Origin: Rhodothermales bacterium
GTDB lineage: Bacteria; Bacteroidota; Rhodothermia; Rhodothermales; VXPQ01
Assembly: GCA_951812335.1 (NCBI GenBank)
Contig: OX638293.1
Location: 1,160,731 to 1,224,730 of the forward strand
Direction: 5' to 3'
DNA: 64,000 bases
Position numbers and translations under genes: made by a program. Positions 2,324 through 55,829 of this stretch are shown here, in pieces (within the stretch, counting starts at the first letter, position 1; every line of letters begins with the position of its first letter). The notes under the pieces were generated by a model, which saw only the letters and a program-made list of their open reading frames with translations, was not told where the DNA came from and searched no databases.

Positions 2324-2342
2324 GGACTTAATCAGAGTATCC
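2324..2342 (+). repeat. Solo right terminus of the structured TIR repeat family (GGACTTAATCAGAGTATCC)
   Basis: The 19-nt string is identical to the right end of the full-length copies at 24899-24917 and 33779-33797. It starts 2 nt after the uxaC stop codon. Confidence 0.75.
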
Positions 2343-6322: not shown

Positions 6323-6439
6323 GGATACTCTGATCAAGACCACTTCGCCCGGCACTTTACTTTCGTACGTAAAGGATGTCATGATTCCATCGTCGGAATT
6401 AACGATACTCTGATCGAAGCGGTTTTAATCAGAGTATCC
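6323..6439 (+). repeat. Structured TIR repeat family, short 117-bp variant
   Basis: Left TIR GGATACTCTGATCAAG, then the CTTTAC..GTAAAG and GATTCC..GGAATC hairpin modules, a degenerate second left end (CGATACTCTGATCGAAG), then the right TIR TTAATCAGAGTATCC. It lies in the divergent spacer before the TPR gene. Confidence 0.85.
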
Positions 6440-22379: not shown

Positions 22380-23444
22380 ATGATCGCCGATGCCGAACCG
22401 GATCACGGGCCGCCGGACGATACCGCTCGAACGGATGACCGTTTGAAACGGCCTCGCGTAGCCGTCACGCTGGGCGATCCCAATGGCATAGGACCGGAAG
22501 TCGTACTCGAGAGCGTGTGTGAAGTACACAGGTTGCGGATAGCGCAGCCCGTTGTCGTGGGGTCCGCACAGGTACTCCGTGCTCATGCTGCGCATGTGGA
22601 AAGCGGCTTGCCGGATATGCAGATCGTTGCTTCCATGCCCGACCGGATTCCGCCGAAGGGGCTGTTCGTTCTCGATATAGCGGCGGACGAACCATTCGAG
22701 CCGGTGTTCGGCAAGGTAGCCGCGGAAGCGGGCGCTCTGGCTATGCGATCGGTCGAACGCGCCGTTGCATTGTGTCTTGCGGGAAAGGTGGATGCTGTGG
22801 TGACAGCGCCTGTTCACAAGGAGGCCATTTCGATGGCCGGGTACATGCATCCGGGCCATACGGAATTCATTGCCGGGCTTGCCGGTTGCAGCCGGTACGC
22901 GATGATGATGATTGCGGAGGGATTGCGGGTTGGTCTTGTGACGGCGCATATGCCTATGCGGGATGTGCCGCATTCCGTCACGCGCGAAGCCGTGCTTGCA
23001 GGTATCCGAGTGGTGGATGCCGCGCTTCGTGCCGATTTCGGCATACGAAGCCCGAAAATTGCCGTACTGGGGCTCAATCCCCATGCCGGGGAGGGAGGCG
23101 TGCTCGGCATGGAAGAAATCGAAGTGATCGGTCCCGCTATCCATGAGGCGCAGGCTGGCGGGCTGCTTGCATCCGGGCCGCATTCTGCGGACGGCTTCTT
23201 TGGGGCAGGCGCCTGGCGCTGGTGCGATGCCGTGCTTGCCATGTACCACGATCAGGGGCTTGCGCCTTTCAAAACGCTTGCTTTCGACCACGGCGTCAAT
23301 TACACCGCGGGCCTGCCGATCGTGCGCACATCCCCGGATCACGGAACCGCATTCGATATTGCGGGTCAAGGAAAGGCGCGTTCGGGAAGTATGTTGAGCG
23401 CCATCCGTCTGGCCGTCGATATAGTGCGGTGCAGGAACAGATAG
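22380..23444 (+). CDS. pdxA: 4-hydroxythreonine-4-phosphate dehydrogenase
   Basis: Contains GDPNGIGPEV, ..VTAP..K.... and GLNPHAGEGG motifs. The ATG at 22380 lies 1 nt after the pepA stop. Confidence 0.9.
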   Translation: MIADAEPDHGPPDDTARTDDRLKRPRVAVTLGDPNGIGPEVVLESVCEVHRLRIAQPVVVGSAQVLRAHAAHVESGLPDMQIVASMPDRIPPKGLFVLDIAADEPFEPVFGKVAAEAGALAMRSVERAVALCLAGKVDAVVTAPVHKEAISMAGYMHPGHTEFIAGLAGCSRYAMMMIAEGLRVGLVTAHMPMRDVPHSVTREAVLAGIRVVDAALRADFGIRSPKIAVLGLNPHAGEGGVLGMEEIEVIGPAIHEAQAGGLLASGPHSADGFFGAGAWRWCDAVLAMYHDQGLAPFKTLAFDHGVNYTAGLPIVRTSPDHGTAFDIAGQGKARSGSMLSAIRLAVDIVRCRNR

Positions 23445-23970
23445 GATACTCTGATCAAAACCACTTCGCTCAGCGCGTCACGTTCGTGCGTACGGGACAT
23501 CATGATTGCATCGTCGAAATTTAAGGATACTCTGATCAAAACCGCTTCGCTCAGCACTTTAAGGATACTCTGACCAAAACCGCTTCGCTCAGCGCTTCAC
23601 GTTCGTGCGTAAACGACATCATGGTTCCCTCGTTGCAATTTGCAAAAAACACTGAGGTTTCGGGCATCGCGGATGTGAAGCGCCCTTCGGGAGGCTGCGA
23701 GAAGTGGGCTGGCCGCGTCATTCCTCATTGTGTGGGGCCTACCACACTGCTTCGTCATTCCTTGCCAGCCCACTTCTCGCAACCTCTGAGCTTTGCGGAC
23801 TTAATCAGAGTATCCTTCACGTTCGTATGTGACGCGCCCTTCGGGAGGCTGCGAGGGGCACGCTGGCCGCGCCATTCCTCATTATGTGGGGCCTGCCACA
23901 TTGCTTCGTTATTCCTTGCCAGCGCACCCCTCGCAAGCCTCTGAGATTCGCGGGCTTAATCAGAGTATCC
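23444..23970 (+). repeat. Compound array of the structured TIR repeat family: left module, solo left end, one full 253-bp copy, one right half
   Basis: Segments: 23444-23524 (left TIR plus hairpin modules), 23525-23562 (left end only), 23563-23815 (full copy), 23816-23970 (right half). The array starts on the last base of the pdxA stop and ends 6 nt before the ftsE ATG, so it fills the whole spacer. Confidence 0.9.
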
Positions 23971-23976
23971 TATGAC

Positions 23977-24660
23977 ATGATCCGTCTTTCCGACATATCG
24001 CTCTCTCACGTTTTGCCCGACGGCCATCGCCGTACCGTGGTCGAACACCTTGACCTGACGATCCAGCAGGGAGAAATGGCGTATCTGGTCGGTCCTACCG
24101 GAAGCGGGAAAACGACCCTGTTGCGGATGTTGTACATGGATGTGTTTCCGGATGCTGGTGTGGCGCAGATAGGCAAGTACCGTACGGATCGAATACGCCA
24201 TGCGGAAATTCCGTATTTGCGGCGCTCTCTGGGCGTTGTGTTTCAGGATTTCCAGTTGCTTTCCGATCGTACGGTGTACGAGAATGTTGCGTTTGCCATG
24301 TATGTCATCGGCAAGCGCGGCAAGGTCGTCAGGGATCGCGTTATGGAGGTGCTTTCGCAGGTGGGGTTGAGTCACAAGAAGAAGCACTTTCCCCACGAGT
24401 TGTCCGGAGGGGAACAACAGCGCGTTTCGATTGCCCGGGCCATGGTGAACGAGCCGCTGATGTTGCTGGCCGACGAACCCACCGGGAATCTGGATCCGAA
24501 TGTCGCCGACGAGATTCTTAAATTGATTGTCGGGCTTCACCGGCAGGGCATGACGGTGCTCATGGCCACGCACAATTATCGTCTGGTTAACCAATTCCCT
24601 GCCCGGACGCTGGGTTTTATGGGTAGACACATTGTGGATGTAGCCCCCGAAACCCTGTAG
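23977..24660 (+). CDS. ftsE: FtsE-like cell-division ABC ATPase
   Basis: Walker [10 protein letters not shown], signature LSGGEQQR, Walker [12 protein letters not shown], 227 aa. No ftsX follows it, so the FtsE assignment is family-level only. Confidence 0.8.
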
Positions 24661-24664
24661 ATAC

Positions 24665-24917
24665 GGATACTCTGATCAAGACCACTTTGCCCGGCACGTC
24701 ACTTTCGCGTGTAAAGGACATCATGATTGCATCGTCGGAATCAGGGGAGGCACTGCGGATTCGGGGCATCGCAGACGTGACGCGCCCTTCGGGAGGCTGC
24801 GAGGGGCACGCTGGCTGCGTCATTCCTCATTGTGCGGGGCCTGCCACACTGCTTCGTCATTCCTTGTCAGCGCATCCCTCTCAGCCTCTGAGCTTTGAGG
24901 ACTTAATCAGAGTATCC
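24665..24917 (+). repeat. Structured TIR repeat family, full-length 253-bp copy
   Basis: GGATACTCTGATCAAG ... CTTAATCAGAGTATCC with all internal modules, including CCCTTCGGG and the long hairpin at 24792-24888. It starts 4 nt after the ftsE stop. Confidence 0.9.
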
Positions 24918-25046
24918 GTATGTGCGCTCTGTCCCGAAATGCTTGCTCCGGATCATGCATGATGCGCAGGCCGTTATGTTCGGGATTGCACAGGAAGATG
25001 TGAAGAAGAGGTCATTCGTTTACTCATCCTTTATACAGGCTCGATT

Positions 25047-26807
25047 ATGGATATTTTTGAAGGGATTGTTTCCGCACTGGAGCGTGTCGTATGGTCATTC
25101 GGTCCCTCTGTCGGCGGTGAGACAATTCCCCTTGTCATCATCCTGCTTCTGGGCACCGGCGTATACCTGACGCTTCGGTTGCAGTTCATTCAGGTTCGTC
25201 GTCTCCGGCATGGGTTTGCCGTAACATCGGGTAAGTACGACGATCCCAACGAGCCCGGAGACGTGTCCCATTTTCAGGCGCTTACCACGGCCCTTTCGGC
25301 TACGGTAGGCATTGGAAATATCGCCGGGGTGGCCATCGCCATTCACTGGGGCGGTCCCGGAGCGATCTTCTGGATGTGGGTCACCGCGTTTCTCGGCATG
25401 GCGACCAAATACACGGAAGTTACGCTTGCGCAGAACTACCGGGATATGGTGCCCGCGGACGATGCGTCCCGCCGGCAGGGCACGGTGGCGGGCGGGCCGA
25501 TGTATTATATCGAACGAGGAATGGGGAAGAAGTGGAAGTTGCTTGCCGGATTTTTTGCCGTGCTTCTTGGCATCACCGCTTTTTTAACCGGCAACGCGGT
25601 TCAGGCCAATACCGTAGCCGATGTGGTGTTCTCCGAGTTTGGTGTGGCCGCCTGGATTACGGGTATCGTGACCGCGGCTGTCATAGGCATGGTCATTCTC
25701 GGGGGCATTAGTCGTATCGGCCGGGTGACCGGGATCCTTGCGCCTGCAATGGCCGCCGTGTATGTACTGGGCGCCCTCGTGATCATTGTGATCAACATAG
25801 ACCAGCTTCCCGGCGCACTGGGGCTCATTTTCAGGGAGGCGTTCAATCCGAGCGCCGGCGTGGCCGGGGTTGGCACGGGAGCGTTCCTTCTTACGCTCAT
25901 GTGGGGCGTTCGCCGCGGGCTGTTTTCGAACGAAGCCGGGCAGGGGTCGGCGCCCATTGCACACTCTGCGGCCAAGACCGACGAGCCCGTCTCGGAGGGG
26001 GTCGTTGCCTTGCTCGAACCGTTCATCGACACCATCGTGATTTGTACGATGACGGCGCTGGTCATCCTGATAACCGGCGTGTGGAATGAGCAGGCGCCCA
26101 CGGAACTGGATCTGGCGTCGGGCGATATGGGCTATGTACAGCAGGATGGGGCGGGCGCCTTTTCCACGGTCGATCCCCTGGATGAAATCCTGATTCGCGA
26201 CGGGACACCGCTAACCGGCCCGGGCATGGCGCAACCTGCCTGGCACGATGTGGTTGTCGAGCGCCTGTTTGTCGACGCGGCGCATACCGAGCCTTTCACC
26301 GGGACCCTGGTTCCTGCCAGTCAACACGCCATCGGGAATGACGGGGATATGTATGCGGTGCTGTACGGCAATGCCGTCGAGAACGGTGCGCCGATGACGC
26401 AACTCGGTTTTCAGCGGGGGTTGGCTCCGCTGGGGAATTGGGGCGGGTACATCGTTATTCTATGCGTGCTGCTTTTCGCTATTTCGACCGCCATTGCATG
26501 GAGTTATTACGGCGACCGTTGCGCCTATTATCTGTTTGGCGAAAAGGGAGTGCTTCCGTACAAGGCGGCTTTTGTGGCGATGCACTTTGTGGGCGCTACG
26601 CTGGCCCTGACGACGGTCTGGACCCTGGGCGATGTGTTCCTTGGGATCGTGATTCTTCCGAACCTGCTGGCAATGATATTCCTTTCGGGCAAGGTTCGGG
26701 AAATGACGCTCGGATATTTCAAGCGCCAGCCCTGGATCGAGAATTATGAGGCGCACAAGCGCAGCGTCGAAGAGAAACGGAGCAAGAAACGGCAATCCCG
26801 TGATTAA
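25047..26807 (+). CDS. Alanine/glycine:sodium symporter (AGCS family) with a large internal insertion
   Basis: Contains ..SHFQALTTALSATVGIGNIAGVA.AI..GGPGA.FWMW.. and ..FSNEAGQGSAPIAHSAAKT... At 586 aa it is longer than family members known to me. Confidence 0.85.
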   Translation: MDIFEGIVSALERVVWSFGPSVGGETIPLVIILLLGTGVYLTLRLQFIQVRRLRHGFAVTSGKYDDPNEPGDVSHFQALTTALSATVGIGNIAGVAIAIHWGGPGAIFWMWVTAFLGMATKYTEVTLAQNYRDMVPADDASRRQGTVAGGPMYYIERGMGKKWKLLAGFFAVLLGITAFLTGNAVQANTVADVVFSEFGVAAWITGIVTAAVIGMVILGGISRIGRVTGILAPAMAAVYVLGALVIIVINIDQLPGALGLIFREAFNPSAGVAGVGTGAFLLTLMWGVRRGLFSNEAGQGSAPIAHSAAKTDEPVSEGVVALLEPFIDTIVICTMTALVILITGVWNEQAPTELDLASGDMGYVQQDGAGAFSTVDPLDEILIRDGTPLTGPGMAQPAWHDVVVERLFVDAAHTEPFTGTLVPASQHAIGNDGDMYAVLYGNAVENGAPMTQLGFQRGLAPLGNWGGYIVILCVLLFAISTAIAWSYYGDRCAYYLFGEKGVLPYKAAFVAMHFVGATLALTTVWTLGDVFLGIVILPNLLAMIFLSGKVREMTLGYFKRQPWIENYEAHKRSVEEKRSKKRQSRD

Positions 26808-33253: not shown

Positions 33254-33543
33254 AAGACCTGCAAACGATGTGAGACCGCACTGAATGACGAGTAGACAGC
33301 AGGTCGTCGGGTCAAAGTGGGCTCACGTACCTTCCGAATTCGACAGGGCCAAGATACTGTCCGAGGCGCCATGGTTCAATCCGACCGCGGCATAGCCGAA
33401 GCCGTTTCTATAAGAATTGCCGGTGAGTTGCCGGTAATTCGGCACCGGGGCAAATTCCTTCACGTTTTCCATTTGACCGGGGAAATACCCGGGGCAGTGG
33501 ATATCCAATTGATGCGGGCGCGACTGAACGCGGCTATATAGCA

Positions 33544-33797
33544 GGATACTCTGATCGAAACCACTTCGCCCGGCACTTTACTTTCGCGCGTAAAGGACGT
33601 CATGATTCCATCGTCGGAATCGGCTAGAAACACTGCGGATCCGGGGCGCCGCGGACGCGACGCGCCCTTCGGGAGGCTGCGAGGTGCACGCTGGCCGCGT
33701 CATTCCTCATTATGTGGGGCCTGTCGCACTGCTTCGTCATTCCTTGCCGGCGCACCCCTTGCAGCCTCTGAGTTTTGCGGACTTAATCAGAGTATCC
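33544..33797 (+). repeat. Structured TIR repeat family, full-length 254-bp copy
   Basis: It is collinear with the copies at 24665-24917 and 23563-23815 and lies in the divergent spacer upstream of the PHP gene. Confidence 0.9.
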
Positions 33798-48513: not shown

Positions 48514-48645
48514 GGATACTCTGATTAAGTTCACTTTGATCAGCGCTTCACGTTCGTGCGTAAGAATATTATAATTGCATCGTCATATTCCTTGCCAGCG
48601 CACCCCTTTCAGCCTCTGAACTTCGCGGACTTAATCAGAGTATCC
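48514..48645 (+). repeat. Structured TIR repeat family, internally deleted 132-bp copy
   Basis: GGATACTCTGATTAAG ... CTTAATCAGAGTATCC. It keeps the left module and only the 3' arm of the long hairpin. It lies in the divergent spacer between nth and the DUF4105 gene. Confidence 0.85.
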
Positions 48646-54789: not shown

Positions 54790-54842
54790 CTGTTCAGCCG
54801 TTACTATGTCCGAGGGAATGGGCGCAATGGCATCGCGGGCGG

Positions 54843-54944
54843 AAAGCGCCCTTCGGGAGGCTGCGAGGGGTGCGCTGGCCGCGTCATCCCTTGCCAGCGC
54901 ACCCCTCGCAGCCTCTGAGTTTTACGGATTGAATCAGAGTATCC
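54843..54944 (+). repeat. Structured TIR repeat family, right half only, with near-perfect 24-bp hairpin
   Basis: ..GCGCCCTTCGGG, then arm 54856-54879 (GGAGGCTGCGAGGGGTGCGCTGGC), a 13-nt loop, arm 54893-54916, then ..GAATCAGAGTATCC. No left end is present. Confidence 0.85.
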
Positions 54945-54978: not shown

Positions 54979-55158
54979 GTTTTTGGTGTTAATGTTTATG
55001 AGCAAGCTCTTTATCGTGCGCGATCCGTTCGTGGGACGTTCCATGTAGCACCGGCCTGCCTCCGTCGCTTCTTGTCCTGCCGGACGTGCTTCCGGTCAGC
55101 GATTCCGTTTTGTCCGATTGCGGATTGAAGGGGCGCTTTGTATTCTGCATGCATTATA

Positions 55159-55345
55159 GGATACTCTGACCAAAACCGCTTCGCTCAGCACTTCACGTTC
55201 ACACGTGAAGCGCCCTTCGGGAGTCTGAGAGAAGCACGCTGACCGCGTCATTCCTCATTGTGTGGGGCCTGCCACACTGCTTCGTCATTCCTTGCCAGCG
55301 CACTTCTTTCAGCCTCTGAGCTTTGCGGACTTAATCAGATTATCC
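55159..55345 (+). repeat. Structured TIR repeat family, 187-bp variant
   Basis: GGATACTCTGACCAAAA.., then CTTCACGT-TCAC-ACGTGAAG joined directly to GCGCCCTTCGGG and the long hairpin, ending ..CTTAATCAGATTATCC 1 nt before the ATG at 55347. Confidence 0.85.
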
Positions 55346-55346
55346 T

Positions 55347-55829
55347 ATGGATACCGTTTTCCGATACCATATCCCGGAACTCCATCCGCTTGCCGTCCAT
55401 TTTCCTATAGCGCTTCTGGCGGCGGCGGCGCTGGCTGCGATTGTCTGGATGACATGGGGCGCGCCCTTTTGGCGCCGCGTTACGTGTTTGCTCGCCATGC
55501 TGGGCATGATGGGCGCCCTTTTTGCCTGGTTTACGGGCGAGTCCATGGAGGAGCAGGCGGAAGGCGTCCCTATCGTAGACGAATTGGTAGACCTGCACGA
55601 GCAGATGGCTTTTTATGCGCTGATCGCGGCCATCCTGACTTCCGTGGCGTTGGGGTTGCTGACCTGGATCGGGCGCGTGGGCCAATCCCAGGGCAGCCGT
55701 TTTGCAGGCATGAATCCGGATCGCCTTCCCTACCGCCTCGGAGCGGGTTTTCTGGTGCTTGCCGCGGCAGCGCTGGTTGCCTGGGCCGGTCACATTGGCG
55801 CAACCATGGTGTGGGGCGTTTCCGGGTGA
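55347..55829 (+). CDS. DUF2231-like small membrane protein
   Basis: 160 aa with four hydrophobic segments. The N-terminal ..HPLAVHFPIALL.. is typical of DUF2231. Confidence 0.65.
   Translation: MDTVFRYHIPELHPLAVHFPIALLAAAALAAIVWMTWGAPFWRRVTCLLAMLGMMGALFAWFTGESMEEQAEGVPIVDELVDLHEQMAFYALIAAILTSVALGLLTWIGRVGQSQGSRFAGMNPDRLPYRLGAGFLVLAAAALVAWAGHIGATMVWGVSG

Follow-up and report, generated by a model that had tools for sequence, protein, structure and literature searches.

Why should copies of a non-coding repeat lie directly against the stop and start codons of their neighbours, all in one direction, and does this place them in the messages of these genes? The question came from a copy that ends one nucleotide before a start codon in the 64,000-nt stretch of Rhodothermales DNA that was analysed (the window, to which positions refer unless another contig is given). 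The original prediction was that all copies in the window share one orientation and abut stop and start codons, and that they must therefore be transcribed, as 5' or 3' UTR or as the place where a message begins, possibly with a role as stabiliser, processing site, terminator or promoter carrier. The repeat copies of the window and the genes that matter for the question are given below.

55159..55345, plus strand: the flagged MITE copy, a 187-nt internal-deletion derivative of the 254-nt form (model positions 1-48 joined to 113-254)
55118..55146, plus strand: promoter-like block TTGCGG-N17-TATTCT, kept in sister genomes, with 12 nt between it and the flagged copy
55347..55829, plus strand: DUF2231 membrane protein gene (PF09990, residues 12-157), its ATG 1 nt past the right end of the flagged copy
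54829..54944, plus strand: right-hand half copy (model 103-254), which shares a divergent intergenic region with 55159..55345
23443..23970, plus strand: composite of four same-orientation pieces (1-79, 1-38, full 1-255 and 111-255) that occupies the whole pdxA-ftsE junction
22380..23444, plus strand: pdxA, whose stop TAG (23442-23444) is made of the flank TA and the first G of the element
23977..24660, plus strand: ftsE, its ATG 6 nt after the right end at 23970 and its stop (24658-24660) 4 nt before the next left end
24665..24917, plus strand: full-length copy between ftsE and agcS, sense and stop-adjacent; the same site is without a copy in nine sister genomes
33543..33797, plus strand: full-length copy in a divergent intergenic region
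48514..48645, plus strand: short derivative with both ends present and the interior deleted, in a divergent intergenic region
6323..6439, plus strand: short derivative made of the left 84 nt and the right terminus, in a divergent intergenic region
2324..2342, plus strand: solo 19-nt right-end fragment GGACTTAATCAGAGTATCC, directly after the stop of a gene that ends at 2322

The identities of the pdxA, FtsE, AgcS and DUF2231 products were confirmed, and the distances on which the prediction had been built were correct, both for the two start codons (55345 to the ATG at 55347, 1 nt; 23970 to the ATG at 23977, 6 nt) and for the contacts with the pdxA and ftsE stops. The fragment at 2324-2342 was not picked up by the profile search.

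The repeat is a non-autonomous MITE of an IS5-group insertion sequence. Its full form has 254 nt and the ends GGATACTCTGAT and ATCAGAGTATCC, which form a 12-nt perfect terminal inverted repeat that continues imperfectly to about 33 nt, and most of 125 copies had a perfect GGATACTCTGAT at each end. Of these 125, 37 were flanked by an exact direct duplication of 4 bp (0.7 expected), and the flank logo read T-T-A-A, its outer positions being Y in 86% and R in 89%, consistent with the YTAR class. At sites that are filled in sister genomes and empty in this one, the tetranucleotide (TTAA, TTGA, TTCA, CATG, AATA) was present once and the junctions were clean. The parent IS has 1,181 bp, 12-nt termini identical to those of the MITE and the matching asymmetry between left and right subterminal sequences, and it encodes a 315-aa transposase with DUF772 and DDE_Tnp_1, which is the IS5-group architecture. 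About a dozen intact copies each were found in the sister genomes G002 and G003, and one of the G002 copies lies here.

G002:C1:712298-715804, positions 1295-2475: intact parent IS

Only a fragment of such a transposase gene remains in the genome under study, where the search for an autonomous partner between paired termini found none and returned only ordinary genes (HPr kinase-like, porin-like, permease, L,D-transpeptidase-like). The assignment to IS5-type MITEs follows from the duplication, the YTAR-like target, the empty sites and a parent IS with the same termini. REP/BIME-type repeats, which are imperfect palindromes of 20-40 nt without target duplication and depend on RAYT, were ruled out by the length of 254 nt, the terminal inverted repeats, the 4-bp duplication and the DDE parent. 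An Rfam scan of 23300-25100 gave only sub-threshold chance matches, with no homology to ERIC or any curated RNA family. Type II MITEs of the IS5 group, which have only the termini in common with their parent, are like the repeat here in being about 254 nt long and non-coding, in their terminal inverted repeats and in their 4-bp YTAR-like duplication, and IS5-group MITEs likewise occur as hundreds of dispersed intergenic copies with internal-deletion derivatives, presence/absence polymorphism and a parent IS with identical termini. What sets the repeat here apart is an interior that is unrelated to the parent and forms conserved long hairpins, and a distribution restricted to one uncultured Rhodothermales genus. 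By eye, one sense frame (AAG GAT ACT, beginning with the last two duplication bases) was free of stops through the whole 254-nt consensus, so translation could continue through a copy inserted in frame into a gene; for eight copies or fragments, the overlap with called genes was more than half.

The genome is a single contig of 2,686,407 bp with 58% G+C, of which the window covers positions 1,160,731-1,224,730. A whole-genome profile search found 252 copies or fragments in 216 intergenic regions, 129 of them with both ends, and nearly all were intergenic. The element-bearing regions were co-directional in 128 cases, divergent in 62 and convergent in 26, roughly in proportion to total intergenic length. 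All 11 genomes of the genus carried the family and none of the 19 from the remainder of the family and order did, and an exact 16-mer scan of all species genomes gave, outside Rhodothermales, single chance matches only. Half of the regions occupied in sister genomes (61 of 122) were empty in this genome, and the pdxA|ftsE, ftsE|agcS and DUF2231 sites were in turn empty in most sisters. We found no paper that describes this repeat family.

The contact with codons can be explained by the 4-bp YTAR target duplication, since TAA and TAG stops are targets themselves. Among the 92 sense copies of co-directional regions, the left end of 51 lay 10 nt or less from the upstream stop. The flagged copy is flanked by TATA and TATG. 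We read these as a 4-bp target duplication in which the ATG of the DUF2231 gene is included, so that the duplicated tetranucleotide at 55345 is T-ATG itself; the sister genomes read AATTATGG at this place. The transposase inserts at YTAR-like tetranucleotides, TTAA most often, and duplicates them, and in a genome with 58% G+C such sites cluster at TAA/TAG stops and in the AT-rich stretch before starts. With target sites concentrated at stops and starts, copies come to touch codons without any function being required. The abutment of copies to codons is a target-site effect and not a function.

The orientation of the repeats within the window had been seen correctly, as 12 of 12 nhmmer hits lay on the plus strand. 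A plus-strand gene does stand to the right of every locus, but four of the six regions are divergent, so that a minus-strand gene start lies on the left too. What had to be given up was the count of eight independent loci and the argument that their agreement had a chance under 1%. There are really six intergenic regions, because 23443-23970 is one composite and 54829-54944 shares a region with 55159-55345; over the whole genome, 18 of 20 multi-copy regions held a single orientation. Copies were split 122 on the plus against 130 on the minus strand, a run of six same-orientation loci was seen four times in the genome, and a runs test (z=+1.4) showed no clustering and so ruled out chromosomal clustering of orientation. 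When random sequences of 218 flips were simulated, 83% contained a run of seven or more. The even split, the lack of orientation clustering and the four runs of six mean that the single orientation of the window is chance.

For the census of orientation against genes, the gene calls came from a scorer of codon usage that had been trained on this genome (2,068 genes, 87% coverage; stops exact, starts approximate), and one element was counted per intergenic region. The outcome was not an even split without relation to the genes. Balanced as the two strands were overall, co-directional regions had 92 elements sense and 36 antisense to their genes (p=8e-7), and with strong gene calls only the ratio was 93:40. 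Replication had to be separated from gene direction, and the GC skew had clean chirality for this, with the minimum (origin) near 0.58 Mb and the maximum (terminus) near 1.98 Mb; 60% of called genes lay on the leading strand. The sense:antisense ratio was 32:16 for lagging-strand genes and 60:20 for leading-strand genes, and orientation showed no replichore bias in divergent (35 of 62) or convergent regions (14 of 26). Since the bias is present on both replichores, it follows gene direction and not replication, and replication direction was ruled out as its cause.

The bias depended on where the element begins. This genome was pooled with unshared sites of the sister genomes (302 regions), and elements that start 20 nt or less from the upstream stop were 79:17 sense to antisense, compared with 48:38 farther away. 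With the stop within 20 nt and the downstream start at least 120 nt off the ratio was 30:6, and with the stop more than 20 nt and the downstream start less than 30 nt away it was 17:13. Where the element filled the junction it was 12:1, and 27:4 where less than 40 nt of residual intergenic DNA remained. Divergent regions had a weak tendency at most, with the right end nearer a start in 54:32 regions and 12 versus 10 within 40 nt. The stop-adjacent end in convergent regions was left or right in 6:7 single-adjacent and 7:5 clear cases, a small sample. Sixty 20-kb regions from seven sister genomes gave 54:20, with 38 regions occupied in this genome too, and the 59 unique sister sites that are empty here repeated the pattern (17:4 up to 20 nt from the stop, 10:5 beyond). 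Thus, the measured rule is that MITE orientation is random except where the element begins within the ribosome footprint of a stop codon. The claim that every copy is oriented like its genes was too strong: about 70% were overall, a share that rose to about 82% only at 20 nt or less from a stop, and divergent regions showed no clear bias.

Such a bias could be made at insertion, if an asymmetric transposition complex were oriented at gene ends by transcription, by the terminating ribosome or by flank composition, with no selection involved. The left and right subterminal sequences are indeed unlike each other, each matching its own end of the parent IS, flank position 5 has a slight asymmetry (G at +5 in about 40%, C at -5 in about 24%), and the ratios were similar at species-shared (20:5) and unshared (28:10) sites, all of which speaks for this origin. 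It is improbable all the same, as the YTAR/TTAA target is palindromic, neither divergent regions nor copies farther than 20 nt from a stop had an orientation preference, and divergent regions had no difference in flank composition between left and right. For this last reason flank composition was rejected as the guide of insertion orientation. We also know of no DDE transposase that reads gene direction, which counts against an origin at insertion.

Whether the copies are transcribed was judged by comparing the same sites between genomes. The stop of pdxA overlaps the start of ftsE in most sisters (ACATGA; ATGA overlap), and here 527 nt of repeat stand between the two, with about 270 nt in G010. 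Any transcript that serves ftsE must therefore cross the copies or start inside them. The insertion also altered the C-terminus of pdxA, which ends ...AGG AAC CGC ACA TGA in the sisters and ...AAC AGA TAG here (window 23436-23444). In front of the DUF2231 gene, the TTGCGG-N17-TATTCT block lies 9 nt before the ATG in six sisters and 191 nt upstream in this genome, with the flagged copy in between. The left end of the copy follows 12 nt after the block, so a transcript that arises from the block would include all of the copy in its 5' UTR, and the simplest reading of these sequences is that the flagged copy now probably forms the 5' UTR of the DUF2231 gene. With the -10-like TATTCT 9 nt before the ATG, the sisters would have a leaderless or nearly leaderless mRNA, and the gene here would carry a MITE leader of about 190 nt (window 55141-55349). 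More generally, a copy that starts 20 nt or less past a stop leaves no room for a terminator, so polymerase would be expected to enter it. The claim that abutting copies must lie in mRNAs or start them thus appears sound for the stop- and start-abutting subset, as the pdxA|ftsE and DUF2231 comparisons suggest, and does not stand as a general rule.

The proposal that the element carries a promoter or terminator was not borne out, as no consensus of either was found in copies. A scan for sigma-70-type promoters and intrinsic terminators in regions that hold six copies found 0 promoter-like and 0 terminator-like sites, and -10-like hexamers past right ends were not in excess, though TTGCGG sits exactly 17 nt from the right terminus. 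This hexamer could form an outward promoter together with a TAnnnT in the flank, and the promoter would produce harmful antisense transcription when facing the 3' end of a gene and be harmless or useful when facing the downstream gene. TTGCGG-N17 at the right end can be read directly from the consensus, the pattern TTGnnn-N16-18-TAnnnT upstream of genes is enriched on the sense strand over the whole genome (117 vs 43) and so appears to be the promoter type in use, and the 20-nt limit is consistent with a lack of space for a protecting terminator. Correctly placed TAnnnT was present in only 14 of 176 right flanks, fewer than in left flanks (18 of 178), the consensus scan found no promoter in three copies, and the start codons near 55345 and 23970 are too close to be served, and this origin of the bias is very improbable. 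Bacteroidetes-type TAnnTTTG promoters, tried as another candidate, were not enriched in this genome (35 vs 23).

The two strands of the element fold differently. Mean folding energy was -116.9 kcal/mol for the complement and -109.2 kcal/mol for the gene-direction strand, and the complement (antisense) strand was the more stable in 145 of 174 copies. Uninterrupted helices of at least 20 bp were formed by 77 copies in antisense and 15 in sense, and the paired columns of the gene-direction strand had 911 A.C mismatches against 65 G.U. Because the complement folds better and sense copies are in excess near stops, messages would mostly carry the poorly folding version. The parent transposase reads from the MITE right end toward the left end, so the MITE strand that folds well corresponds to the parent strand that is sense for the transposase. 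It is conceivable, if improbable, that the repeat works in one direction only at the RNA level: read in the direction of the gene, as in four of five stop-adjacent copies, it would be transparent, whereas the opposite direction would yield a strong block or a cleavage site. If that were true, its spread through the operon junctions of a reduced symbiont genome would give orientation-dependent insulation against antisense and read-through transcription genome-wide.

We tentatively prefer, as a reading that may be right, random insertion followed by purifying selection that acts on the RNA and removes copies in the strongly folding orientation where they begin inside the footprint of the terminating ribosome. 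The orientation of insertion would itself be random, and copies next to a stop (about 20 nt) or filling a junction would be transcribed with the upstream gene. The under-represented orientation near stops is the one that would place the better-folding strand in the mRNA, and purifying selection on the RNA would remove it. The effect would need a terminating ribosome that reaches the base of the terminal stem, as proposed for ERIC, and elsewhere, in divergent promoter regions and for copies more than 20 nt past a stop, orientation would stay close to random. What we infer is that the copies are transcribed, that selection causes the bias and that the ribosome is involved. A terminating ribosome reaches about as far as the 20-nt limit. 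If the upstream mRNA is what is affected, convergent regions should show about 4:1, and the counts there were near equal (p about 0.08, few cases); in short convergent regions one of the genes always faces the antisense form. The antisense copies that survive next to stops are not decayed ones, since they were not truncated more often than sense copies (7 of 11 antisense and 28 of 61 sense copies were full length). A transcription-linked mutational strand asymmetry in the copies (C>T vs G>A by orientation) gave no usable signal, with p=0.08 in an unexpected direction.

The same orientation could be purged for the sake of the downstream gene. Antisense copies would then fold strongly in polycistronic mRNA, block the next gene and be lost from operon junctions, with the upstream gene unaffected. 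That the bias peaks where the element fills the junction or leaves less than 40 nt is what this would predict, and so is the lack of bias in convergent regions, which have no downstream gene. Ten of the 11 antisense copies that lie within 20 nt of a stop in this genome have their downstream gene at least 66 nt off, and Shine-Dalgarno-like tetramers before starts were barely enriched (17% vs 13% in the control); with such low use of Shine-Dalgarno sequences, initiation should be sensitive to structure. The bias was nevertheless independent of the distance to the downstream start, being strong at 120 nt or more and absent near a start when the stop was more than 20 nt away, and divergent regions tolerated either end within 40 nt of a start codon. 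A downstream effect is rather unlikely in our judgement, and the evidence does not cleanly separate it from one on the upstream mRNA.

The strongest version of the prediction would make the copies domesticated UTR modules (stabiliser, processing site, terminator or promoter carrier) that are kept in one orientation for the neighbouring gene. The internal stems are conserved, the orientation is biased at gene ends, and copies are kept at essential-gene junctions such as pdxA|ftsE in two species, as would be expected of such modules. Most sites vary in presence or absence between sisters, as in the half that are empty here, in most contexts the copies point either way at random, the strand with the conserved fold is mostly absent from mRNAs, and neither a terminator nor a promoter consensus was found, all of which goes against domestication and makes it the least probable of the explanations considered.

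Selection on the RNA near stops, which we prefer, has its closest parallel in ERIC, where orientation and the opening or cleavage of the hairpin induced by ribosomes determine what happens to the mRNA (De Gregorio et al. 2005, reviewed in PMC2229807). Like the element here, the ERIC/IRU sequences of enterobacteria are hairpin-forming MITEs between co-transcribed genes whose orientation matters and is tied to nearby terminating ribosomes (PMC2229807). The element here differs in being twice as long, with two internal hairpins and no sequence or Rfam kinship, and our basis is a population-level census whereas that for ERIC is mRNA stability. The orientation rule appears to be new, resembles the behaviour reported for ERIC and would support a model of the ERIC type in a distant phylum.

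Correia elements (NEMIS) duplicate TA, carry an IHF site and can create promoters; the element here has a 4-bp duplication and no promoter consensus was found in it. As an abundant intergenic MITE with terminal inverted repeats, Correia is similar to our element. In Neisseria it is co-transcribed, and its long double-stranded RNA is a substrate of ribonuclease III (PMC3049150). The small interspersed repeats BOX, RUP and SPRITE of Streptococcus pneumoniae were found by RNA-seq to be co-transcribed with their neighbours, and their distribution was analysed against the orientation of flanking genes and was enriched between convergent genes (PMC3049150). These are different families in different hosts, and the element here shows no convergent preference.

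As mobile DNA the element is of an ordinary kind, and the conditional orientation rule is a modest addition, which connects translation termination, in a way that can be tested, with what becomes of mobile-element insertions, here in an uncultured lineage associated with sponges. TAA and TAG stops are insertion hot spots in these genomes and operon junctions can be split by hundreds of bases, so care is needed in the prediction of gene starts and operons around copies. Directly before start codons, C was the commonest base at -1 (51%) and -2 (39%).
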